This document shows positions 14,379 to 27,779 of a stretch of DNA of 64,000 nt, in pieces. The notes under the pieces are model-generated. The model was not told where the DNA came from, searched no databases, and saw only the letters and a program-made list of their open reading frames with translations. Numbering within the stretch: the first letter of the stretch is position 1; each line of letters begins with the position of its first letter. The stretch comes from a virus: positions 27,364-91,363 of IMG/VR virus record IMGVR_UViG_3300031548_000002. One strand, given 5' to 3'. A program made the position numbers and the translations under genes.

Positions 14379-14962
14379 TGGAGTGGCGACTGTTCGAAGA
14401 GGGCACGACGCCGTACGTCAGCACCGCCGAGTTTCACCGGGACCGCGAGCGCGCGCCGCACCTGGAGCAGGCGCACCACCGGGCGCGCATGGAGCTCGCG
14501 CTGGAGTGCGTGCGCGCCGCCGAGAACTGGTACGCCAAGCCGACGCTGTGCGACCTCGGCGCGGGCGACGGTGGGTTCCTGACGCTGGTCGCGCCGTACG
14601 TAAGTCGCGCGTGGGGCTACGACCTCTGTCCCGCGAACGTCGCGGGTGCGGCGGAGCGCGGAGTGAACGTCGAGCTGCGCGACTTCACCGCGGAGAAGCC
14701 CGAGCTGGGCACGGTGGTGACGACGCTGGAGGTCTTGGAGCACGTCGCCCGCCCGCACGCGCTGGTGAAGGCGCTGTGGCAGGCGGGCGTCCGGGTGCTG
14801 ATCGCATCATCACCGGTGGATGAGACGGAGGCATCTCACGACGCGGTTCACGCGTGGGCGTGGGACATGGACGGCTACCGCGCGCTCGTTGAGAGTGGCG
14901 GTTGGACCGTCGTACGGCACGAGACGGCCGGTCGGTACCAGGTGGTACTCGCTCGCAGGTAG
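14378..14962 (+). CDS. class I SAM methyltransferase (paralog of 42409..42978)
   Basis: DLGAGDG, EVLEHV, HAWAWD. Confidence 0.85.
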   Translation: MEWRLFEEGTTPYVSTAEFHRDRERAPHLEQAHHRARMELALECVRAAENWYAKPTLCDLGAGDGGFLTLVAPYVSRAWGYDLCPANVAGAAERGVNVELRDFTAEKPELGTVVTTLEVLEHVARPHALVKALWQAGVRVLIASSPVDETEASHDAVHAWAWDMDGYRALVESGGWTVVRHETAGRYQVVLARR

Positions 14963-14970
14963 GAGTAGCG

Positions 14971-16635
14971 GTGGGTTGGCGGAGAACCTCATCGGCGCGA
15001 CCGCGCGCACGCGTGATGCGCGGTGACCGCGAGAGTACGGCGCTCGCGGTCGTCGAGAGCCCCGCGCTGTCGCGCCGCGAGCACCGCGCGTTGCAGCGCG
15101 CCGCTAAGAAGAACGCGAAGAAGGAGTCGCTGACCGCGGCTGCCGCGATCATGCGGTCGGACACGCGCGGCACCGTCATCCAGAAGAAACGCTGGCAGGA
15201 TGAGGCGTGGGACAACTGGCGTGGTAACGGTGAGCTCTGGTACGCGACCGAGTGGAAGGGCAACGCGGTCTCACGCGTGCGGTTGAAGGCCGCGAAGATC
15301 GTGCCCGGCTCGGATGAGCCGGAGATCGTGGACGACGGTCCGGCGGCGGAGCTTATGGAGCAGCTCGCTGGTGGCATCGGCGGCCAGTCCGTGCTCATGA
15401 AGAGCTTCTCGATCAAGCTCGACATCGCGGGCGACTCGTATTTCATCATGTACGTGGATGAAGAGGGAGTTACGCACAGCGGGGTGTACTCCGCGGACGT
15501 CGTGCGCAAGGACACCAGCGGTGGTTTCTCACTTCAGCTGGATGAGTCCGGGCCAGTGCCGCTGCCGCGCGAGTCGCTGGTCGTCCGCATCTGGAACCCC
15601 GACGAGCAGTACCCGTGGCTGGCCATCTCGCCGACCGAGCCCGCGCTCAGCGTGCTGCGCGAGGTCGACCTCTACAACCGAAAGATCATCACCGAGCTGA
15701 CGGCGCGCATCGCCAGCAACGGCGTGTGGCTGATTCCCGATGAGGTGACGTTCCCCGTCCGCGACGAGTTCTCGGACGCGCCGGACCCGTTCATCTCCGA
15801 GTGGATCGACGTCGCATCGAAGGCGATCCAGAACCCGGGAAGTGCCGCGGCCGCACTGCCGATTCCGATGCGCGTGCCCGCGGACTTCATCGACAAGTTC
15901 GAGCACGTCCGCTTCTCGGACAACGTCGTCAAGGAGACGTTGGACGGTCGCGACCGCGCGCTGAGCCGACTCGCGAAGATGCTCAACGTTCCGGCTGAAG
16001 TTTTGACTGGCATGGGAGACGTGAACCATTGGGGGTCTTGGAAGATCGAAGACTCCGCGATCAAGATTCACGTGCTTCCCACGGTAGAAACGATTTGTCG
16101 TGGTCTCACGGTGGGGTACCTGCAGCCCGCCCTCTCCAATCAGAGCCTCGAAGAGTTCGACGATAATGACGTCGCGGATGACGCGAATGGCGAGCAGGCG
16201 CAATACGTCGTCTGGTATGATGCGTCCGAGCTGGAGAAGCAGCCCGACCTCGGCGAGCGCGCCGTCCAGCTCCACGACCGCGTCGCGATCTCTGACGAGG
16301 CACTGCGCCGCGCGACCGGCTTCGATGACTCCGACGCGCCGACCGACGAAGAGCGCAACGCGCAGATCCTGAAGAAGCTCGCGTACAGTGGCCAGCAGGT
16401 CACCAACGCGTACGAGGAGCTCACCGGAACTCCGGTGGCCGGCGTCGGGGACGAGGAATCCACGACCTCGCCCGAAGCGAACCTCCCCGCACCGGCGCCG
16501 GCCGCCGGGCCTGCGCCCACGGTGGTAAGACCACCGAGCACGCGCACCGAAGTACCGTCCGGTGAAAGTGGCGGACCTCCGGGCGCGAGCGTCGACACCA
16601 CCTTCCTCGAGATCGTTGAGAGGACGCGCACGTGA
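14971..16635 (+). CDS. portal protein
   Basis: WQDEAWD...GELWY, RIWNP, LNVPAEVLTGMGDVNHW typical of actinophage portals; AGGAG RBS before GTG 14971. Confidence 0.85.
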   Translation: MGWRRTSSARPRARVMRGDRESTALAVVESPALSRREHRALQRAAKKNAKKESLTAAAAIMRSDTRGTVIQKKRWQDEAWDNWRGNGELWYATEWKGNAVSRVRLKAAKIVPGSDEPEIVDDGPAAELMEQLAGGIGGQSVLMKSFSIKLDIAGDSYFIMYVDEEGVTHSGVYSADVVRKDTSGGFSLQLDESGPVPLPRESLVVRIWNPDEQYPWLAISPTEPALSVLREVDLYNRKIITELTARIASNGVWLIPDEVTFPVRDEFSDAPDPFISEWIDVASKAIQNPGSAAAALPIPMRVPADFIDKFEHVRFSDNVVKETLDGRDRALSRLAKMLNVPAEVLTGMGDVNHWGSWKIEDSAIKIHVLPTVETICRGLTVGYLQPALSNQSLEEFDDNDVADDANGEQAQYVVWYDASELEKQPDLGERAVQLHDRVAISDEALRRATGFDDSDAPTDEERNAQILKKLAYSGQQVTNAYEELTGTPVAGVGDEESTTSPEANLPAPAPAAGPAPTVVRPPSTRTEVPSGESGGPPGASVDTTFLEIVERTRT

Positions 16636-18788
16636 CGCGCATCACGATGGTCTCCGAGGCTGAGCTGCAAGCTGCCGCCGACGCGCTCGCCACGGACATG
16701 GTCGAGACGCTGCGTGCGGTTCTACGGCGCGCGGGCCAGGCGCTGGGCCAGACTATCACGGCGGCCGCCGAGCGGCCCGAGCGGGTCGTTCTAGACCAAG
16801 CTGAGACGGCCTGGCTGGACGCCGTCAACGGCGACTTCTTTCCGCGCGTTGTGAACGCCTACGTCTCCGCCGCAGAGCGCGCTCACCTGCAGCTCGTCGA
16901 CGTCTATGGCGGCGCGCCGGCCGCCGTGCCATTCGTGAGCCAGTCGGCGGCGGTCGCGTACCTCACGGACTCCGGCAACCGCATGATGAACGTCACGGAG
17001 GGCACGTGGGCGCGCGCTCGAGCGCAGCTCATTGAGGGTTTTCAGGCGGGCGAGTCGATCCAGCAGCTGACCGCTCGCCTGCAGTCGGTGAGCGACTGGA
17101 GCGAGTCGCGCGCCGCGACCGTGGCCCGCACTGAGATCATCTCCGCGTCCAACGCGGGCGCGCTGGCCGAGGTGCAGGCGACCGGTGCGATCGCGAAGAA
17201 GACGTGGCTCGCCACCAAGGATTCGCGCACGCGTGAGGCGCACCGTAAGGCTGACGGCCAGACGGTTAGCGTCAACAACGTGTTCATCGTGGACGGTGAG
17301 GCGCTGGACTTCCCGGGCGACCCGCAGGGTGAGCCGGAAAATGTGATCAACTGCAGATGTACTTTGTCACTTGACGTCAAAAAGTCGGAGCTGTCCGTCG
17401 CGCTGGAAGACCTGCCCGACGTCACCGACGAGTTCGACCCAGCGGACTTCGTCGACCTGGACTCGCTGGTCGCGGCGGCGTCGCGCATTGAGCTCGCGCC
17501 GCGTAAGAAGTACGACGAGTCGAAGCACAAGCGCGGTAAGGGTGGACGCTTCGCACCTAAGTCTGGCGGTGGCGGCGGTAAGATCGACTATAAGAAGAAG
17601 ACCGCCAAGAAGGCGCCCGAGCCGGAGCCCGCCGAACCGGCGAAGAAGATCAGCTACAAGAAGACCACCGCTAAGAAGACGGCCGCGCCTCCGACGCCGC
17701 CGCCCGCGCCGACTCCGCCGCCCGCTAAGAAGGCCGCACCGGCGAAGACGACCGGCAAGAAGATCGCGCCCACCCCGCCTCCGCCGCCGGTCAAAGAACC
17801 GCCCGCGCCGGAGATCGAAGAGCTGCCCACACCGGAGCCGGCTGCACCCGGCGGCATCGAGCCGAGCGCGCCGATCGTGCAGGTGACGCCCGAGGTGCGG
17901 GACGCGCTGGACCTGTCGGAGGGCGACTTCGCGGAGACGGGTAGCCGTGTGCTGGTCGGCGACCGTGCCGGAACGGTGCGCCACTCGACGACCAACGACG
18001 CGGATCTCAGTGATGAGCTCTGGGTGCAGTTCGACGATGACCCGACGCGCGTCCAGCGCATGGCCGCGACGGACGCTGAGGTGATCGACGCGGCGGATGA
18101 CGACTACGCGGACATCACGCGGTCGCCCTTCCCAGCGGACGTCGTCGAGAACCTGCCCGCGGGCGCGCCGTTGGGCGATGAGGACGAGAATGAAGCTGAC
18201 GAGGACGCGGGCGACGACGGTGCGGAGCTGCCGTTCGCGGTCACGCCCGGCTTCGAGCCTCTCACCGAGTCGGATGCCAACGACATGCAGGACGAGATGC
18301 TGGCGCGCGAGCCCTGGTCCGTGGCGCAGGAGGAAGCACTCACCGTGTACAGCGGCGACGCGTACACAGAGATGAACGGCTGCCTGCGGTTCGATGAGGG
18401 CTGCACGGATGACATCGAGTTCGACAACCGGCAGGCGTCCGCGGCGATGCGTCCCACGACGCGCGCGACGACGGTCACGCGCGGCGCGAACTTCCAGTCG
18501 CTGGGCATCAACAACGCGGCACAGCTGGAGTCGCTGGTCGGCGCCACGGTGAGTGACCACGGCTTCACCAGCACATCGATCGATCCGAACTCCGCGTTCG
18601 CCGGCGACGTCCGGCTGCAGATCGAGGTGCCCGAGGGTGCGCGCGCCGCGTACATCGACCAGATCAGCCAGAACGCGGGCGAGCGTGAGCTGCTGCTCGA
18701 CAGAGGCACGCGCTTCGAGGTGCTGGAAGTCCAGATGCCTGCGGAAGAAGGCATGCCCGCCGCGGTGCGAGTGAGGGTGGTTGTGTAA
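16632..18788 (+). CDS. MuF-like minor head protein with C-terminal VIP2-type ADP-ribosyltransferase
   Basis: RAATVARTE, KTWLATKDSRTREAH, PGDP...INCRC (MuF); TVTRG...FTSTS...GERELLL (R-S-E ART). Confidence 0.88.
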   Translation: MTRITMVSEAELQAAADALATDMVETLRAVLRRAGQALGQTITAAAERPERVVLDQAETAWLDAVNGDFFPRVVNAYVSAAERAHLQLVDVYGGAPAAVPFVSQSAAVAYLTDSGNRMMNVTEGTWARARAQLIEGFQAGESIQQLTARLQSVSDWSESRAATVARTEIISASNAGALAEVQATGAIAKKTWLATKDSRTREAHRKADGQTVSVNNVFIVDGEALDFPGDPQGEPENVINCRCTLSLDVKKSELSVALEDLPDVTDEFDPADFVDLDSLVAAASRIELAPRKKYDESKHKRGKGGRFAPKSGGGGGKIDYKKKTAKKAPEPEPAEPAKKISYKKTTAKKTAAPPTPPPAPTPPPAKKAAPAKTTGKKIAPTPPPPPVKEPPAPEIEELPTPEPAAPGGIEPSAPIVQVTPEVRDALDLSEGDFAETGSRVLVGDRAGTVRHSTTNDADLSDELWVQFDDDPTRVQRMAATDAEVIDAADDDYADITRSPFPADVVENLPAGAPLGDEDENEADEDAGDDGAELPFAVTPGFEPLTESDANDMQDEMLAREPWSVAQEEALTVYSGDAYTEMNGCLRFDEGCTDDIEFDNRQASAAMRPTTRATTVTRGANFQSLGINNAAQLESLVGATVSDHGFTSTSIDPNSAFAGDVRLQIEVPEGARAAYIDQISQNAGERELLLDRGTRFEVLEVQMPAEEGMPAAVRVRVVV

Positions 18789-21700
18789 TGGCCAACGGCG
18801 AAAAGCTCACGCCGCTGACGGACCCGAGCAACGTCCAGTGGGTCATCGAGCGCCCGGGTGATGCTGCCGCGACGACGGCTGCGGTCACGCCGCGCCCGAA
18901 GATGGCCGCATACTCCGCGCTGGTTGCGGCGACCGCGGTCAGCCTCAAGAAGAAGTTCGACGAGTCCAAGGTCAAGCGTGGGCCCGGTGGCAAGTTCGCG
19001 AAGAAGGCTGGCGGGGGATCGTCGGCGCCCGCGCCCGCAAAGAAGACCTCCGCGGCGCCGATCGCGTCCGGTAAGAAGATCACCAACAAGGTCATCTACG
19101 GGAAGCACGCCAACGGCTCGATCATCCAGTCCACCGACGGCCAGCACCGCATGGTCTACAATGCGGCGGGCAACAACTGGACGGTCCAGCGGCGCACGTC
19201 CGACGGCGGCTGGGAGGTCGTCGAGGTCCTCGGCAAGGGCGCCGCGTATAAGAAGGCGAACGCGCTCAGCTCTTCGTGGGGTGAGCTGCGCGCGGACGAT
19301 GATGAGGAGCCTGACGTCGCGACCGCGGCGACTGTGGATGCGGATGCCGGTGACGCCCCTGACGCAGGCACGACAACGAGTAATGCCTCCGCGGGACACG
19401 GCGCATTCGCGGACGGCTGGAACGACCTGTCGGCGTCACCACTGTCGGCGTATCAGATGGCGAGTCTGCACATCGAGTCGGCATTCTCCAATGAAGATGC
19501 TCTGAATGCGGGTCTCGCCGCGCAGCACGTCGCCAATTTGGCGAACAAGTACGGCGTCACGCCTGAGCAGGCGCTGGCCATCATCGACCATGAACGCGGC
19601 GACAGCGTGTACTCGGATCGCGTTCGCGCTCACCTCGCGGGCCAGCCATTTCCGCCGTCCACCCTGACCGTACCTCCGGGAACGCCGTTGGGCTCGGCGA
19701 AGAAAATCGCCGCGAAGAAGACTGCGGCGAAGAAGGTGGCGCCGCCCGCGGTCGCGCCGTCGCCGGCACCGGCGAAAAAGGCCGCTAAGAAGATTGCGTA
19801 CACAAATCCCATGGCGTCCGCACTCGCGGGCGAGGATGTGCCTCTCGCGCAGCTGGAGGCGCAGCAGGCCGCATCACAACAGATTCGAGATGCTCTTCAC
19901 AACTACAACAATGCATTGGCGGATCCCTCACTGACCGTCACGGACACGAGTAGCTACGCGTCCATCTTGTCGATTCTTAAGAAGCAGTATAAGAATAAGT
20001 ACGGTGTGGCGTGGTCGCCGTCACATCACGCTGCGGTCGTCGGGACGTACCAGAAGCAGCTCGCTAAGAGTGGACCCGCCGTAGCTCCAACGTCGGAACC
20101 GGCGACGCCCGCTCCGACGAAGAAGCCCGCGAAGTCGAAGACGTTCGCGAAGGGTGACTCGGTGATCGGACCGACCGGCGCGACGGGCGAGGTCGTCGCC
20201 GTTGCGGAGACCACCGGCACGAAGATCAAAATGTCGAAGGTGCAGTTTCCCGACGGTCAGGTGGGCTGGTTCAAGAACGACGAGCTCTCTGACGCCACGA
20301 CGGCGTCCAGTCCCGCCGCGGCGGATCGCCTGGACGGCGCGCAGAAGGGCGTCATTCCGGGAGCTTACGTCTACACGCCAGGAGGTGACATCGCGACCGT
20401 CGTAGGCCAGGGGCCGCCTAACGCGTATGGTGATCCGCAGGTCACGTTCCAGACGGTGAGTGGATCAACGGGCACACTCGCCGCCGGGGACTTGCGACCA
20501 CTTACGCAGTTTCAGATCGACTCGCTGACCAACGCGCCCGTCGACGGCGCGTACGTCAGCACTCCCATGGGTGACGGTTACGTCGTAGGTGCACCGTTCG
20601 CCAACGCGATCGGTAATCCATCGATCACCGTTGACGTCAACGGAACGCCCACGAAGTTCAACGTCAACGACGTGACGCCCGCGACGGCACCAACGCCTGC
20701 GCCCGCGGCTCCGGTGATCACGCCCGCGACGCCCGCCGCAGCTCCGGCACTGTCGTACGACGCCGACGGCGTTCCGATTCTTGACGACGCGCAGCAGGCA
20801 ATGCTCCAGAGTCACTTCAAGGATGCGGGCGTCAACTGGTACAGCGACACAACGTCGATCTTTGACGCCGCGTACGCCGCGTCCCAGGCGACGGGCATGT
20901 CCATGGAGGATGTGCTCAAGTACGCCGATGCGAACTACCACAGCTCGGCGAAGTTTGGCGGCAAGCCGTTTCAGGCCAAGGTTGAGAAGTGGGCGAAGTC
21001 TTCTAAGGGCAAGGCTCACGTTCAGGCGACGCTGGGCACCGCGCCGACCGGGGCGACGCCGACGTCGCTGGTGCCGGTTCGCACACCACCCGTTCCGACG
21101 CCGCAGCCGCCGCCCGCGCCCGCGAACATCACCGCGACCAACTACGGTTCGACGAGTCAGCCTCACGGTGACTTCTTTCCACTTTCCAGCGGTTACACCA
21201 CGTTGGATCCCGATGAAGCGCTCGAGCTGCAGCGTGAGATGGAAGCACAATCGGGTGCACTTGATCCGCGGGAAAGTAGCGCACTCACATACTATACCAG
21301 CGAGTCTTACCGTGAAATGAACAACTGCTTGCGGCGTGGTGAAGACTGTAACGCGGGTGTGATGTATCATAACGGCACGCGCTACACGTCGTACCAGACC
21401 AGCGAGTACGCGACGCAGGGAATGCGACCACTTACGCAGAACGTCACCCTGTACCGCGGCACGAACATCGAGTTCGCGCCGGACCTCAACCTGACGAGCG
21501 CGCACGACCTCGAGAATCACGTCGGATACATGGCACAGGACTTCGCTTTTTCCAGCGCATCGGTGAACCCTACCACCGCGCACAGCTGGGGTGCGGGCCA
21601 GTACAACGCGGTGATCATGCAGATCGAGGTACCCGCCGGCTACCCCGCCACGTACGTCGACCACATTTCCGATAACCCGGGCGAGTATGAAATGGTGCTG

Positions 21701-21790
21701 CCGCCGGGAACGCGCTACCGCATTGTGGAAGTTAAGCCGTCGCGCAGCATTTCGGACGGCGTCATTGTTCGAGTGGAGGTCATTCCGTGA
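18788..21790 (+). CDS. large virion-associated ADP-ribosyltransferase
   Basis: YTSESYREMN, TLYRG, FSSAS, GEYEMVLPPG; AKK-rich linkers; SH3/KOW-like repeats. Confidence 0.8.
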   Translation: MANGEKLTPLTDPSNVQWVIERPGDAAATTAAVTPRPKMAAYSALVAATAVSLKKKFDESKVKRGPGGKFAKKAGGGSSAPAPAKKTSAAPIASGKKITNKVIYGKHANGSIIQSTDGQHRMVYNAAGNNWTVQRRTSDGGWEVVEVLGKGAAYKKANALSSSWGELRADDDEEPDVATAATVDADAGDAPDAGTTTSNASAGHGAFADGWNDLSASPLSAYQMASLHIESAFSNEDALNAGLAAQHVANLANKYGVTPEQALAIIDHERGDSVYSDRVRAHLAGQPFPPSTLTVPPGTPLGSAKKIAAKKTAAKKVAPPAVAPSPAPAKKAAKKIAYTNPMASALAGEDVPLAQLEAQQAASQQIRDALHNYNNALADPSLTVTDTSSYASILSILKKQYKNKYGVAWSPSHHAAVVGTYQKQLAKSGPAVAPTSEPATPAPTKKPAKSKTFAKGDSVIGPTGATGEVVAVAETTGTKIKMSKVQFPDGQVGWFKNDELSDATTASSPAAADRLDGAQKGVIPGAYVYTPGGDIATVVGQGPPNAYGDPQVTFQTVSGSTGTLAAGDLRPLTQFQIDSLTNAPVDGAYVSTPMGDGYVVGAPFANAIGNPSITVDVNGTPTKFNVNDVTPATAPTPAPAAPVITPATPAAAPALSYDADGVPILDDAQQAMLQSHFKDAGVNWYSDTTSIFDAAYAASQATGMSMEDVLKYADANYHSSAKFGGKPFQAKVEKWAKSSKGKAHVQATLGTAPTGATPTSLVPVRTPPVPTPQPPPAPANITATNYGSTSQPHGDFFPLSSGYTTLDPDEALELQREMEAQSGALDPRESSALTYYTSESYREMNNCLRRGEDCNAGVMYHNGTRYTSYQTSEYATQGMRPLTQNVTLYRGTNIEFAPDLNLTSAHDLENHVGYMAQDFAFSSASVNPTTAHSWGAGQYNAVIMQIEVPAGYPATYVDHISDNPGEYEMVLPPGTRYRIVEVKPSRSISDGVIVRVEVIP

Positions 21791-22236
21791 CGACACCTGC
21801 AAGCGGTGAGGTAGAAGAGCGTGGCCCGACGGTAAGCTCACTGGTGGACCCCACGTCCGTGGAGTGGGTGTCACTGGTGCCCGTCTCCGAAGAGAATCCG
21901 TTCGATGAGGGTGAGCTGGATGAGGACGGCCTGACCGAGTCCGAGTTCGACATGATCTTTCGGCGACCCGCGGCGAGCGTTCCGATCAACCTCATCGCCG
22001 CAGTGGACGTCACAGAGAGTCCGCGCGAAGAGCTGCAGTCAGGCATGCCACGGCAGCTGAAGGACTACTGGCTGCGCGGCGAGGGCGCGGCGCAGATTCG
22101 GTGGGGCACCAAGGGTTCGTTCACCCGCTGCGTCCGCGAGCTGCGCGAGCACTTCCCCACGGGGACCGAGGGCCTGTGCGCGAACCTCTACCACGAGGCA
22201 ACGGGGCACTGGCCCGGTGAGGATCGTGACAAGTAG
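21787..22236 (+). CDS. head-module protein (YWxxGEGAAxIRWG domain)
   Basis: YWLRGEGAAQIRWGTKGSFTRC...GLCANLYHEATGHWPG, a domain seen in actinophage head modules. Confidence 0.7.
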   Translation: MTTPASGEVEERGPTVSSLVDPTSVEWVSLVPVSEENPFDEGELDEDGLTESEFDMIFRRPAASVPINLIAAVDVTESPREELQSGMPRQLKDYWLRGEGAAQIRWGTKGSFTRCVRELREHFPTGTEGLCANLYHEATGHWPGEDRDK

Positions 22237-23585
22237 TGGAGACGCTCGCACCGCGTAGACGCTTCGATGAGTCGAAGGTCAAGCGCAACAAGGGACGCTT
22301 CGCGAGGAAGGCGGTGGGCGCGCTCTTTCGCCCGCCGCCCGCGCTGGTGCGCGGCACTCCGGAGGCCAACGTCTTTCGACGTCACAACGACGGCGACGTC
22401 ACGCACGTGTCGGACGACGGCAGCCAGCGGATGGTCTACGATGAGGTCACCGACCAGTTCGATCAGCAAGTGCGTCAGCCCGACGGCTCGTGGCAGTCGA
22501 TCGGTAAGCGTGGTAAGCTTCAGGCGTACCTACTAACAAAGCTCGGCTGGCGCGCAGGTGAACAGGAAGATCAGGACGCACCCGCGCTGGCCGTTGACGC
22601 GGTGGACGTCGATTCGCCGGACGTTAGTGCACCGGATGCGAGTGCATCAGCGACACACTCTTCCATTGCGACGCCCGCGGACGACATCAGTGCACTGACG
22701 CCCGAGCAGATCCGTAACGCGTACAACGCGGTCAACGCCGCGGGCAGCGTGCTCAGCGACCCGTACACACCGCCGGAAGATCTCGCGCAAGTGGCGTCGA
22801 ACGTCGCTGACGAGCAGTCGCTGACGCCGCTGCAGGTGCTGCGCGCCGTCGACGCGCACGAGGCATCTCTCTACGGTGATCCCAACACGAATCGCATTGA
22901 GAATCGCGTCGTTCAGCACCTAGCGGGTGCGGACTTTCCCGCACCGGGTGGTCCACTTACGACGGACGGGCCCGCACCGGCACCACTTCCCGCGACCGTG
23001 GTCGCGCTACCGCACCAAGATACCGCGCCATTTCCGATAAGTGACGACTTCCCCACGCGAACCGACACTGATATGGCGCGCATTCAACGTGAGATGGAAG
23101 CGCAGAGCGGCGCGCGAACTCCCGCGGAGATCGCGGCGATTCGCGACTACTCCGTCACGGCGTACCAGGGCATGAATGAGTGCCTACGAACGGGAAGTGG
23201 CTGCGATCCCAATGTGATTGATCGCAATAATGAGCTTGAAAGTGCGATGCGTCCCATCACCGAACCGGTGACCGTCTTCCGACGCATGATGCTGGATAAC
23301 CTACCAGGTGTGACGTCGGCCGCTGACCTGCAGTCGCTGGTCGGCTCAGACATCACAGACGCCGGGTTTACCAGTACGTCGCTGGACCCCGCGCAGACTC
23401 AATTGTTCGGCAACGTGCGACTTCAGATCGCGGTGCCTACCGGAACGAGGGCCACCGTTCCGGGCGCACACAGCGTACACTCTGGCGAGCAGGAGGTCAT
23501 CTTGGCGCCCGGAACGCGTTATCGCGTCATCGACGTTGACACCTCGGGCACAACGCCCGCTGTGCAACTGGAGGTAGTGCTGTGA
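22236..23585 (+). CDS. ADP-ribosyltransferase (paralog of 18788..21790)
   Basis: YSVTAYQGMN, TVFRR, FTSTS, GEQEVILAPG. Confidence 0.82.
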   Translation: METLAPRRRFDESKVKRNKGRFARKAVGALFRPPPALVRGTPEANVFRRHNDGDVTHVSDDGSQRMVYDEVTDQFDQQVRQPDGSWQSIGKRGKLQAYLLTKLGWRAGEQEDQDAPALAVDAVDVDSPDVSAPDASASATHSSIATPADDISALTPEQIRNAYNAVNAAGSVLSDPYTPPEDLAQVASNVADEQSLTPLQVLRAVDAHEASLYGDPNTNRIENRVVQHLAGADFPAPGGPLTTDGPAPAPLPATVVALPHQDTAPFPISDDFPTRTDTDMARIQREMEAQSGARTPAEIAAIRDYSVTAYQGMNECLRTGSGCDPNVIDRNNELESAMRPITEPVTVFRRMMLDNLPGVTSAADLQSLVGSDITDAGFTSTSLDPAQTQLFGNVRLQIAVPTGTRATVPGAHSVHSGEQEVILAPGTRYRVIDVDTSGTTPAVQLEVVL

Positions 23586-25801
23586 CCACGCCCATCGATG
23601 TGAACACTAGTGAGTTCACGCCACTCACTGACCCGAACAATGCAGTGATGACGATTATCCCCACCGAAGATGAGGTCATTGAGGAGATCACCGAAGATGA
23701 GCTCGCCGCAGTTGGTGACACCTTCACCAGTGGCATGATCGCTCTCATTCCTACTGCTGCCAATGCTGAACGTCTCTACGCGGGCGAAGATGATTTTGGC
23801 GAGTTGCCTGAGGACTTGCACACCACGGTGATCTACTTGGGCGACATCACAAGTATGGACGAGCGAACGTTTAGCACGATCGTGGACGAGCTCGTGAACA
23901 TCGCCGATGAGGAGCTTGGGCCGGTCGTCGCGGAGGGGTTCAATGTCGCGCTCTTCAACCCACACACTGACGAGCGTGACACATGTGTGACGCTGGGTCT
24001 GAGCGGATCAACGCTTCACCTGCTCTGTAAGAAGATCCGCGACCGGATCATTAAGAAGATCGCCGGTGAGAGTTATCAGATTCCCGAGCAGCACGAGCCG
24101 TGGATTCCGCACGTGACGCTCGCGTACACCGAGGACTACTCCACGGTGGAGCGCCTGGCAGACCGCACCGGCGACATCACATTTGATCGTGTGCGCTTGG
24201 CCCTGGGTGATGATGTCTACGACTTCGATCTCAGAGACACGTTCAAGCCAGTGGATCTAGCTGACGTTGAGGACGACGCGGACTACGAAGAACTTAGCGA
24301 CGGCGAACTCTTTGGTGAGCTCTTCGCGGGCGCGGCAGTGTCGGAGATCGACCGAGACTCCACGATGGAATATAATGATCGCGAAGGTGAGGTGATGAAC
24401 GTGACCGACACGGTCGAAGAGGCCGCCGAGGTGGAGGTCTCCGAGTCCGAGCCCGGCGCGTGGTCCGGCGTCCTGATCGTCGAGGGCGTTGAGTCGGGCG
24501 ACGGTCGCATGTTCGCGGAGGGCTCGCTCAAGTCCGCGCCACTGCCGCTGCCGCTGATGTGGCAGAAGCAGACCGCCACGGGGCACGAGACCGCCGTGCA
24601 GGCGGGTCGCATCGATGAGGTGTGGCGCGAGGGCAACCAGATCTGGGGACGCGGAGTCTTCGACCTGGAGGGCGACGACGGCTACGAGGCGTACCGGCAG
24701 GTGGCGCAGGGCTTCCTGCGCGGCGTGTCCGGCGACGTCGACTCGGTGAAGGACTCTGACGTCGAGCTCGTCTTCCCGAAGTCCGGCGGTGCGGAGAGTG
24801 CGGAGGGAGCCGACGGCTTCGGCGACCTCTTCGCGGCGCCCGAGCTGACGATCTTTCACCGTGGCCGGCTGCGCGGCGCGACGCTCGTGCAGTTTCCCGC
24901 CTTCGTGGAGGCGTCCATCGCATTGGACGGTCAGACGCTCGACACGGACGAGACCGCGATCGAGGAGGGCCCGCACTCAGAGTTCGCCGATGACGACGCG
25001 ACCGAGCTTGCGATCGAGAGCGCCGGTGAGTCGGTGGACGCTGAGGACGAGGAGGAGATCGGTCACCTCGCTCGGCGCGCCGAGCTGACCGCCTGCGGCT
25101 GCACCGATGAGGCGCCGCCGACCGACTGGTTCGAGGACCCGAAGCTGTCCGGACCGACGCCGCTCACCGTCACGGAGGACGGTCGGATCTTCGGCCACGC
25201 CGCCGTCTGGGGAACCTGCCACACCGGCTTCTCCGGCACGTGCGTGACGCCGCCGCGCGAGCGACTCCACGAGTACTTCCTACTGGGCGAGACGCTCACC
25301 GCGGACGGATCCACCGTTGCCACGGGCTCCATCACACTGGGAACGGGTCACGCGGCGACCGGCGGCAAGCTCACCGCACTGCAGGCGATCGATCACTACG
25401 ACCACACCGGCACCGTCGTGGCGGACGTCGCGACGGGTGAGGATAAGCACGGCCTCTGGTTCTCCGGCGCGCTGCGGCCGAAGCTGTCGCCGTATAAGCT
25501 GCGCGCACTCCGCGCCGCGAAGCTGTCCGGCGACTGGCGCCGCTTCGGCAATGGGCTGCGCCTCATCGCGCTGCTGGCGGTCAACGTGCCGGGCTTCCCG
25601 GTGCCGCGCGTCAAGGCCGGCGCGCGCCGTGGGGTTCAGACGTCGCTGGTGGCCGCGGGCGTCAACCCGTACGGCCCGGGCGACCAGCAGAGCGCGGTCG
25701 AGCAGGAGGCGCTGCAGGCCATCGTGGCGAGCCTGAAGCAGCGCATCGGACGCGACGACAAGTCGCGGCTGGATGAGATCCGCAAGCGGATTGGGAGGTA
25801 G
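23582..25801 (+). CDS. 2H phosphoesterase (LigT-like) fused to putative capsid maturation protease
   Basis: LHTTVIY and PHVTLAY HxT motifs; EGVESGDGR, PLPLMWQ...GH, RGVS, RGATLVQFPAF protease-like region; GRIFGH...LSGDWR C-terminal domain. Confidence 0.8.
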   Translation: MTTPIDVNTSEFTPLTDPNNAVMTIIPTEDEVIEEITEDELAAVGDTFTSGMIALIPTAANAERLYAGEDDFGELPEDLHTTVIYLGDITSMDERTFSTIVDELVNIADEELGPVVAEGFNVALFNPHTDERDTCVTLGLSGSTLHLLCKKIRDRIIKKIAGESYQIPEQHEPWIPHVTLAYTEDYSTVERLADRTGDITFDRVRLALGDDVYDFDLRDTFKPVDLADVEDDADYEELSDGELFGELFAGAAVSEIDRDSTMEYNDREGEVMNVTDTVEEAAEVEVSESEPGAWSGVLIVEGVESGDGRMFAEGSLKSAPLPLPLMWQKQTATGHETAVQAGRIDEVWREGNQIWGRGVFDLEGDDGYEAYRQVAQGFLRGVSGDVDSVKDSDVELVFPKSGGAESAEGADGFGDLFAAPELTIFHRGRLRGATLVQFPAFVEASIALDGQTLDTDETAIEEGPHSEFADDDATELAIESAGESVDAEDEEEIGHLARRAELTACGCTDEAPPTDWFEDPKLSGPTPLTVTEDGRIFGHAAVWGTCHTGFSGTCVTPPRERLHEYFLLGETLTADGSTVATGSITLGTGHAATGGKLTALQAIDHYDHTGTVVADVATGEDKHGLWFSGALRPKLSPYKLRALRAAKLSGDWRRFGNGLRLIALLAVNVPGFPVPRVKAGARRGVQTSLVAAGVNPYGPGDQQSAVEQEALQAIVASLKQRIGRDDKSRLDEIRKRIGR

Positions 25802-25992: not shown

Positions 25993-26021
25993 TTGCCGAG
26001 ATCAACACCGTGGTGTACAAT
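25993..26021 (+). promoter_or_regulatory. promoter for capsid gene
   Basis: TTGCCG-N17-TACAAT. Confidence 0.65.
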
Positions 26022-26060
26022 GCGCGTAAGGTTCATCAACGTGAAGCAAGAGGAAGCCGC

Positions 26061-27779
26061 ATGAATGGGTATCAGGGTCTGCCGGAGGACCTCTCCGCGC
26101 TGAGCGATGATGAGCTTCGCGCGCTGGAGGAGGCTGCGGTCGCGGCCTTCGACGAGGCCGCCGACCCGGAGAACGACGTCTCGGCCGAGGTAGTCGCGCA
26201 GGCCGCGCAGCTCGCCGACGACATCGACGCCATCCGCGCCGAGATCGCCTCGCGCGAAGAGATGGCACTGCAGCACGCCGCCGACCGTGAGGCGCTGCAG
26301 TCGCGCGTGCACGGCCGGGGCGAGGCACCGACCGAGGCCGCCGAGGAGACCACGCAGGAACTGGCCACGGAGCTCGCCGTGGAGGAAGGCGAGGAAGTGG
26401 ACGAAGACGAAGTCGTCGCGGGTGGGCAGCACTACAGCCCGGCGCGGACGACGCCCCGCAACGCGACCGGGAAGCGCAAGCTCAACGTCTCGCTGTCGGC
26501 GATCCAGGCGCGCGCGCCGAAGGTTGAGGTTCCCAACACCCCGTTGCGTTCGACGCTGGTCGCGTCCGCGGACATCCCGGGTTACGCCCAGGGCTCCCGG
26601 CTCGACTCGATGTACGACCTGGTTTCTGCGGCGCACAACCGTGTGCGCACCGTCGGCACCACGACGCGCGGTGATGACGCCCCGCGGTACACCGTCGCGT
26701 CGATGAACCGCAGCTTCAAGTACACGCTCGACCGGCAGGCCACACCGCAGCAGATCTCCGAGGTCCTGACCGCCGCGACCAACGTCAGCGAGCTCGTCGC
26801 CGCCGGCGGCTGGTGCGCCCCGTCCGAGATCTCGTACGACCTCTTCAACATCGTCTGCGAAGACGGCATGCTGGACCTGCCGACCGTGGGCATCAACCGC
26901 GGTGGCATCCGCTTCCCGATCTCCCCGGACTTCTCCAGCCTCTCGGGCAACCCGGCCCTCTGGACCTGGACCGAGACGCAGGACATCGCCGCCGTCACCG
27001 GCACTGACCAGTCGGGCGTCAAGACCTGCGGTCGCGTCCCGTGCGCGACGTTCTCTGAGGAGCGCCTCGCGTGCGACGGCGTTTGCCTCACCGTCGGCAA
27101 CCTCATGGACGACGCGTACCCGGAGCTCATTGCGAACCACATGAAGCTCCTGATGGCCTTCCACGCGCACAAGATGAACTTGTCGCGCATCAATAAGCTG
27201 GTGGCCGCGTCCGTCGCGGTGTCCGGCACGGTGGGCATGGGCGCCGTCGGCGAGTCCGTCATCAACAACGTCCTCGGGGCGCTGGAGCTGCAGGCTCGCG
27301 ACTACCGCGAGAAGTTCGCGATGTGCGAGGATGCCGTCCTCGAGGTCGTGCTGCCGCGCTGGATCCTCGACATGATGCGGTCGGACATCCGTCGCCGCAC
27401 CGGCGTCGAGCTGCTCTCGGTCGCGGACTCGTACATCGAGGGGCTCTTCGATGCCCTCGACATCCGCATCCAGTTCGTCGGCGACTGGCAGGTGCGCACC
27501 ACGGGCTTCCCGGGCGGTACCGGAACGCTGCTGGCCTGGCCGACGCAGGTGCAGGCGCTGATGTTCGCGCCGGGCACCTTCGTTCTCGGCGAGGGTCTCA
27601 CGCTGGACCTCGGCGTCATCCGCGACTCGGTGCTCAACCAGACGAACGACTACACCGCGGCGTGGATGGAAGAGTGCTGGCTGATCGCCAAGCTCGGTCA
27701 CGAGTCCCGTCTTCTCACGATCAACGTCTGCGCCAACGGCCGGACCGGTGCCGCCGACATCACCGCCTGCGGTCTCTGA
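26061..27779 (+). CDS. major capsid protein with N-terminal scaffold-like region
   Basis: Acidic coiled-coil N-terminus; LVAAGGWCAPSE, LDLP..GINRGGI, LDLGVIRDS.LN.TNDY. Confidence 0.88.
   Translation: MNGYQGLPEDLSALSDDELRALEEAAVAAFDEAADPENDVSAEVVAQAAQLADDIDAIRAEIASREEMALQHAADREALQSRVHGRGEAPTEAAEETTQELATELAVEEGEEVDEDEVVAGGQHYSPARTTPRNATGKRKLNVSLSAIQARAPKVEVPNTPLRSTLVASADIPGYAQGSRLDSMYDLVSAAHNRVRTVGTTTRGDDAPRYTVASMNRSFKYTLDRQATPQQISEVLTAATNVSELVAAGGWCAPSEISYDLFNIVCEDGMLDLPTVGINRGGIRFPISPDFSSLSGNPALWTWTETQDIAAVTGTDQSGVKTCGRVPCATFSEERLACDGVCLTVGNLMDDAYPELIANHMKLLMAFHAHKMNLSRINKLVAASVAVSGTVGMGAVGESVINNVLGALELQARDYREKFAMCEDAVLEVVLPRWILDMMRSDIRRRTGVELLSVADSYIEGLFDALDIRIQFVGDWQVRTTGFPGGTGTLLAWPTQVQALMFAPGTFVLGEGLTLDLGVIRDSVLNQTNDYTAAWMEECWLIAKLGHESRLLTINVCANGRTGAADITACGL

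Follow-up and report, generated by a model that had tools for sequence, protein, structure and literature searches.

Capsid-carried, co-injected phage proteins, among them toxins, anti-defense enzymes and transcription factors, are hard to recognize from sequence. In polyvalent proteins, effector domains such as ADP-ribosyltransferases (ARTs) and 2H phosphoesterases are fused to, or lie beside, MuF, portal and protease domains, and these proteins have been proposed to be packaged into the capsid for injection (PMC5512222; Iyer, Burroughs, Anand, de Souza, Aravind 2017). T4 IPI-III and Alt (an ART) carry a short N-terminal capsid-targeting sequence and the ejection proteins of phiKZ and SPN3US carry propeptides, and in these head-internal proteins the prohead protease cuts at a motif that the capsid protein also has (PMC3012670, PMC5694885, PMC10052503). 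Here, we focus on a short peptide, hereafter the tag, that is shared by three predicted ART proteins encoded in 64,000 nucleotides of the virus record IMGVR_UViG_3300031548_000002 (the window; bases 27364-91363 of the 91,363-bp source record, which CheckV rates as complete; G+C content of the window, 65.7%). All coordinates are those of the window, and all its features discussed here lie on the plus strand. The three genes, ART1 (16632..18788), ART2 (18788..21790) and ART3 (22236..23585), sit between the portal gene and the protease and capsid genes. With slightly more conviction than doubt, we propose that the three motifs represent this phage's own copies of a short linear head-cargo motif with a wide distribution, that the head protease frees ART1 and ART2, and that the tag serves to dock or handle the cargo.

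As in polyvalent proteins, ARTs and a 2H-phosphoesterase-like domain adjoin head genes at this locus, and the tag recurs between the modules of such a protein (P0025); the difference is that the cargo here is distributed over three genes rather than carried on one giant chain. The text of PMC5512222 mentions neither a junction motif nor cleavage at such a motif. ART1 resembles the MuF toxins (PMC5576092, Jamet et al. 2017), including the Bxa ART toxin as presented in the MuF passages of PMC11699363, in having MuF at the N-terminus and an arginine-type ART at the C-terminus, joined by a linker, within a head-morphogenesis block. Unlike these toxins, ART2 and ART3 have no MuF domain detectable in Pfam searches, and we identified no immunity gene at the locus, where the only small neighbor (21787-22236) belongs to a head-associated PHROG family. 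Neither a shared tag nor a putative MuF-toxin protease site was found in PMC5576092, and the MuF passages of PMC11699363 do not mention either. The likeness to T4 consists of an N-terminal peptide on putative head cargo that includes an ART and of a putative cleavage site shared with the capsid. The T4 targeting peptide precedes the cut and is discarded, whereas the tag follows a putative cut by 8-11 residues and would be retained; the T4 layout, with a peptide that lies before the site and is removed, fits the LTPLTDP leader of ART2 described below and not the tag. In addition, the tag has no sequence similarity to the T4 peptides and spans many phage lineages rather than one.

The earlier note on this DNA had placed the motif in the three ART genes, and translation confirmed all three copies, in frame and at the coordinates claimed. 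Tag 1 (KKYDESKHKRGKGGRFAPK, 17505..17561) covers residues 292-310 of ART1 and is internal, 49 residues past the end of MuF; tag 2 (KKKFDESKVKRGPGGKFAKK, 18947..19006) covers residues 54-73 of ART2; and tag 3 (RRRFDESKVKRNKGRFARK, 22254..22310) covers residues 7-25 of ART3 and is N-terminal. Inside these spans, the motif is positioned at residues 294, 57 and 10, respectively. SLVAAA starts at 17463 and ALVAAT at 18917, and the distance from LVAA to the aromatic residue of the tag is 11 residues in ART1 and 8 in ART2, again as the note had described; in ART3, the tag is N-terminal already and no LVAA lies ahead of it. A six-frame scan with a relaxed peptide pattern returned three sites only, i.e., the three ART tags, and a profile of the three tags searched against the whole 91,363-bp record returned the same three only (E values of 3e-24 to 4e-20). 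The tags of ART1 and ART3 are 65% identical over 26 residues, compared with 30-40% for the ART domains, while the flanks of the tags are unalignable. Among 15 ART3 orthologues, R9, E12, K14, K16, R17, K19, G20, R21, F22, A23 and K25 are invariant, and in L005, a syntenic 92-kb relative, the tag is kept in all three ART genes. Synonymous positions vary freely among the copies, and identical DNA runs extend over just ~11-14 bases, supporting that conservation and selection act on the peptide. In a structure model of ART3, the confidence (pLDDT) is <50 over residues 1-29, which include the tag; the tag is therefore predicted to be disordered, as expected for a flexible linear motif.

A motif search across phage head modules had been suggested as a way to list the domains that carry the tag. 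We built a tag profile from seven copies and searched it against 1.84 billion cluster representatives. Because the three copies of this phage seeded the profile, their own match is circular; independent support for a family comes from the retrieval of 235 clusters that share a common consensus. In total, at least 235 protein clusters matched at E≤1e-3, 20 of them at ≤1e-10. The profile is skewed to the basic variant of this phage and recognized only 11 of 49 exact FDESKHPRD copies, so 235 clusters is a lower bound. Copy numbers, spacing and consensus were determined on the best 148 of the matched proteins. These contain 303 tag copies, with two or more copies in 101 proteins and a median of 335 residues between copies; the carriers are mostly large multi-module proteins with typically 2-6 copies. 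In 56 of the 148 proteins, no more than 40 residues separate the first copy from the N-terminus, and a near-N-terminal location is the commonest. The family consensus, [FW]-D-E-S-K-[HV]-[KPN]-R-D-x-x-G-[RKQ]-F-A-x-K-x-G-G, is roughly neutral in charge, in contrast to the strongly basic tags of this phage, and variants of the type NP[NY]HDxxGRF were also retrieved. Most tag carriers have no Pfam domain, and the others bear MuF, portal, prohead protease, ART, zeta toxin and similar domains; likewise, the named Pfam or PHROG families present on 73 profile matches are nearly all MuF, portal, prohead protease or toxin domains. In stand-alone head-module proteins, the tag is N-terminal or nearly so, and in giant polyvalent proteins it occupies each of the module junctions. 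For example, the 2747-residue P0025 has seven ART-PolyVal matches and a C-terminal MuF, with tags preceding at least five of the ART units (in the one case in which the distance was checked, the tag is at 316 and the ART begins at 352).

Exact FDESKHPRD copies gave a second data set, comprising 49 copies on 47 IMG/VR stretches from 46 records. In all 21 records with both an exact copy and a MuF match, the two are on the same strand and 0.07-7.9 kb apart, in records of up to 120 kb, and 23 of the 49 copies start within 40 residues of the beginning of the frame, often directly after Met. All tagged IMG/VR records and all profile matches are uncultured. The tag probably marks capsid cargo. Searches of Pfam, PHROG and PDB sequences returned no entry covering the tag, automatic pattern scanning of IMG/VR gave one locus for the tag alignment and one for the ART3 alignment, and a full-text literature search for the motif letters gave noise only and no paper on the tag. 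When a 36-residue tag sequence was compared with cultured phages by tblastn, the only match was a chance-like one to primase/polymerase genes of Arthrobacter phage, in which the key residues of the motif are missing, and this candidate was rejected. A tag-like sequence, FDYNDKHDKLGRFAPKSGGSGG, is found at residue 31 of a 233-residue protein (L004:5896-6597) on a low-G+C 101-kb phage contig; ParB-like genes lie ~1.4 kb downstream of this gene, and the locus has no recognizable head genes. Pfam DUF7211 (L-x-H-[HY]-G-x-K-G-M-K-W-G) is comparable to the tag in that it is also a short head-cargo peptide and joins the tag in P0072, P0074, P0137 and P0173; it differs in sequence and has no match in this phage. 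The co-occurrence of DUF7211 and FDESK-type tags in the same multi-module proteins suggests that more than one class of junction tag exists.

The second element of the proposal is the tetrapeptide L[VTI]AA, which occurs 14 times in the ~100 predicted proteins of this phage. Eight of these occurrences fall in six head proteins between portal and capsid, both included, against 0.78 expected from composition (none of 2000 shuffles reached 8), and six in the other 94 proteins, against 4.2 expected; i.e., the motif is tenfold enriched in head proteins, all six of which have a copy. The copies lie in the N-terminal region of the portal (LTAA, 15130..15141, kept in L005), at the end of MuF ahead of tag 1 (LVAA, 17466..17477; LTAA in L005), at the end of the ART2 leader (LVAA, 18920..18931; L[VL]A[AS] or LTAA in orthologues), in the 149-residue protein encoded at 21787-22236, close to the C-terminus of the protease fusion (LVAA, 25646-25657), and in the capsid protein (LVAA, residues 262-265, 26793..26804). 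No copy follows the tags in this phage, and the head-protein sites are retained in L005 with some A/S and V/T exchanges. In the capsid, the surrounding L-V-A-A-G-G-W-C is nearly invariant in 120 homologues, and for this reason the putative cut motif is easily seen in this phage. Based on a structure model, the capsid site separates an N-terminal helical, partly disordered, scaffold-like propeptide region from the HK97 fold, with a dip in model confidence at residues 249-259; a cut at this LVAA would leave ~324 residues, and matches of the model to mature HK97-type capsids span 310-350 columns. The AAGGWC junction of the capsid is also widespread in Actinomycetota assemblies. Among 59 aligned capsid homologues, eight cysteines are invariant (C252, C323, C328, C338, C342, C539, C557 and C570 in the 572-residue form); HK97-type capsids do not usually show this feature, which may reflect disulfide- or metal-mediated stabilization.

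Herpesvirus assemblin and the phage prohead proteases that share its fold cleave at a consensus of (V/L/I)-x-A followed by S. We take the L-[VTI]-A-A of this phage to fit this assemblin-type site of a hydrophobic residue, any residue and Ala followed by a small residue. The difference from assemblin is that the protease encoded at 23582-25801 is known via PHROG families alone; it had no Pfam peptidase match and no PDB match. Among tagged proteins in general, the eight residues preceding the tag are 31% identical within a protein and 10% identical between proteins, compared with 9% and 7%, respectively, for a control region; [LVIM]xA[AGSC] is present in 25% of the windows upstream of tags versus 7-8% of control windows; and P0028 and P0107 contain repeated [LV][VT]AAG-DFDE. 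These data make L[VTI]AA a credible prohead-protease site, and if the head protease does cut there, then all three ARTs would carry the tag close to the N-terminus.

What lies upstream of the putative sites is a MuF domain in ART1 and a leader in ART2. The latter, LTPLTDPSNVQWV (18806..18844), is a probable removable propeptide. All ART2 orthologues start with MTTPxxKLTPLTDPDNVxWV, and ~30 residues further on the site and then the tag follow; the 149-residue protein (21838-21873) and the protease fusion (23615-23650) also begin with similar leaders (LTPLTDPxNVxWV or a close variant). In two stand-alone ART1-like genes of relatives, P0041 and P0083, the leader takes the place of MuF, indicating that leader and MuF may be interchangeable removable carriers. 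LTPLTDPxNVxWV resembles a head-targeting propeptide that can be removed, and not an immunity peptide. Neither leader nor MuF is present in ART3 and its 14 orthologues, which carry the tag only.

The three proteins differ in how these elements are combined with their ART domains. ART1 consists of MuF (PF04233, residues 131-245, E=1.6e-20), the site, the tag, a basic Pro/Ala/Lys linker and a C3-like ART (PF03496, 562-702); ART2 of the leader, the site, the tag, a long multi-domain middle part and an ART (825-985); and ART3 of the N-terminal tag, a small beta domain, a helical domain and a C3-like ART (295-436). The PF03496 matches score 71.3, 63.9 and 58.3 bits for ART1, ART2 and ART3, respectively, against a curated cutoff of 23.4, and the Arg, Ser-x-Ser and Glu-x-Glu motifs read TRG/STS/ERE in ART1, YRG/SAS/EYE in ART2 and FRR/STS/EQE in ART3. 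The model of ART3 matches C3bot and a Listeria ART toxin with target-normalized TM-scores of 0.7-0.8. The ART domains of the three proteins are paralogous, and a post-tag domain is additionally common to ART2 and ART3. Past the tags, ART1 (17562-17900) and ART2 (19700-19800) contain stretches rich in Pro, Ala and Lys, in which K-I-x-Y-K-K units recur in a manner reminiscent of the basic tails found on nucleoid proteins of actinobacteria; these stretches may reflect a DNA association particular to the lineage.

We infer the following sequence of events. ART1 and ART2 would be made with a removable N-terminal carrier, i.e., MuF in ART1 and the ~47-residue leader in ART2, which would bring them into the procapsid. 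The carrier ends in L[VTI]AA, where the head-maturation protease would most likely cut inside the procapsid, and the cut would free ART1 and ART2 with a disordered tag 8-11 residues from the new N-terminus, the state in which ART3 is made. The tag would be retained rather than removed and would most likely act as a docking or handling peptide, either by binding a conserved component of the head interior, so that the cargo is loaded or held there, or by leading the protein out at ejection. The idea in the earlier note that cleavage places the tag at the N-terminus of all three proteins agrees with the site-like L[VTI]AA and with the prevalence of near-N-terminal tags elsewhere. Of the functions suggested there, capsid targeting draws support from the link between tag and head modules and faces competition from the removable leader and MuF upstream of the site as loading signals. 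DNA tethering would suit the basic charge of the tags in this phage; since that charge is peculiar to this phage and the general consensus is near neutral, tethering is unlikely as the general role of the tag. The suggestion that the tag could serve other cargo is borne out to the extent that it heads unrelated putative cargo domains elsewhere.

Several observations weigh against this proposal. The removable leader and MuF, lying upstream of the site, resemble a T4-style targeting sequence more closely than the tag, which would be retained. Leader, MuF and site are all absent from ART3, implying that either the tag alone suffices or this protein does not belong to the cargo. The spacing of site and tag is not constant and ranges from 2 to 12 residues. 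Of the 46 records with an exact FDESKHPRD copy, 25 have no match to MuF (PF04233), including 8 of the 14 records that are ≥90% complete; MuF is therefore unlikely to be the general partner of the tag, and we rejected it as an obligatory one. Finally, none of 58 actinobacterial loci with a related capsid (L054-L111), which are mostly contigs of cultured isolates and hence probable prophages, carries the tag within 10 kb of the capsid gene, and the tag system is therefore accessory.

It is possible, if unlikely in our assessment, that the removable MuF or LTPLTDPxNV leader is the real loading signal and that the tag, being retained, has its function at a later stage, once inside the infected cell, e.g., by binding a conserved host component or nucleic acid. 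A leader or MuF precedes each putative site, the two are interchangeable in relatives, and MuF has already been proposed as a capsid-targeting domain (PMC5576092 and the MuF passages of PMC11699363); moreover, the tags of this phage are unusually basic and are followed by the Pro/Ala/Lys-rich, DNA-binding-looking stretches. Yet, loading by the carrier alone does not sit easily with ART3 and its orthologues, which carry only the tag, nor with the many tagged proteins elsewhere that begin with the tag straight after Met. The general consensus is near neutral in charge, and a later host target, being common to hosts of very different composition, would have to be universal. A purely protease-directed role, in which the tag is a recognition or docking element for a nearby upstream cut and has no function afterwards, appears improbable to us because the capsid, portal and protease sites of this phage come without a tag, the distance from site to tag is variable, and many N-terminal tags have nothing upstream to cut off. 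Such a role would nevertheless account for the phage-specific conserved flank directly upstream of a universal tag and for tags at every module junction of polyprotein-like chains.

To a reading of the tag as a junction marker that promotes cassette swapping by recombination, with or without a role at the protein level, we assign a comparably low probability. VENN in CdiA and the DPxGL region of Rhs are analogues, and the tag marks the boundary between carriers that stay constant and effector domains that vary, preceding unrelated domains from one phage to another; on the other hand, the freely differing synonymous positions, with their short identical DNA runs, disfavor a purely recombinational role, and the peptide is conserved across phages of very different base composition. 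That the similarity is a functionless leftover of ART gene duplication is, in our view, highly improbable. The ART domains are indeed paralogous, and ART2 and ART3 share their post-tag domain. However, judged from the alignments, the tags are more than a by-product of ART paralogy because the tag is conserved beyond the catalytic domains, its flanks are unalignable, and it is kept in the orthologues and in L005; furthermore, the profile search, in which the tag was found on unrelated domains in hundreds of other proteins, contradicts such a reading.

The remaining genes of the head block were annotated by Pfam and PHROG matches. The portal gene (14902-16635) lies upstream of ART1. The 149-residue protein has a C-terminal conserved small domain (PHROG 6439) that is also found inside polyvalent proteins and protease fusions of other phages, and the stop codon of its gene overlaps the ART3 start by one base. 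The protease fusion (23582..25801) combines an N-terminal 2H-phosphoesterase-like domain, which has a weak match to PF13563 and belongs to a PHROG RNA-ligase family, with the head-maturation protease; this fusion is retained in L005. The major capsid protein is encoded at 26010-27779. No near-identical DNA was found among the cultured phages searched, and the nearest cultured relative of the MuF/ART protein is that of Gordonia phage GMA6, with 31% identity. Assembled genomes of Streptomyces, Gordonia, Rhodococcus, Mycobacterium and further Actinomycetota commonly contain the capsid family, probably within prophages, and the host of this phage is therefore likely actinobacterial.

The window offers a clean, small case in which three related ARTs represent three states, i.e., with a MuF carrier, with a leader carrier and with a bare tag. 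If the proposed reading is correct, a conserved tag together with a phage-specific cut site that copies the capsid maturation site would allow the cargo of uncultured phages to be listed from sequence only, and the two elements would hint at how the modules of giant polyvalent proteins are freed. A bolder extension, about which we are doubtful without dismissing it, is that tailed phages with HK97-type heads share the tag as a portable, near-universal address peptide, and that a copy at a free N-terminus, whether genetically encoded in that position or uncovered by the head protease, would be sufficient for retention in the capsid and delivery with the DNA. If so, sequence alone would suffice to read off injected phage effectors, and cargo of choice could be loaded.

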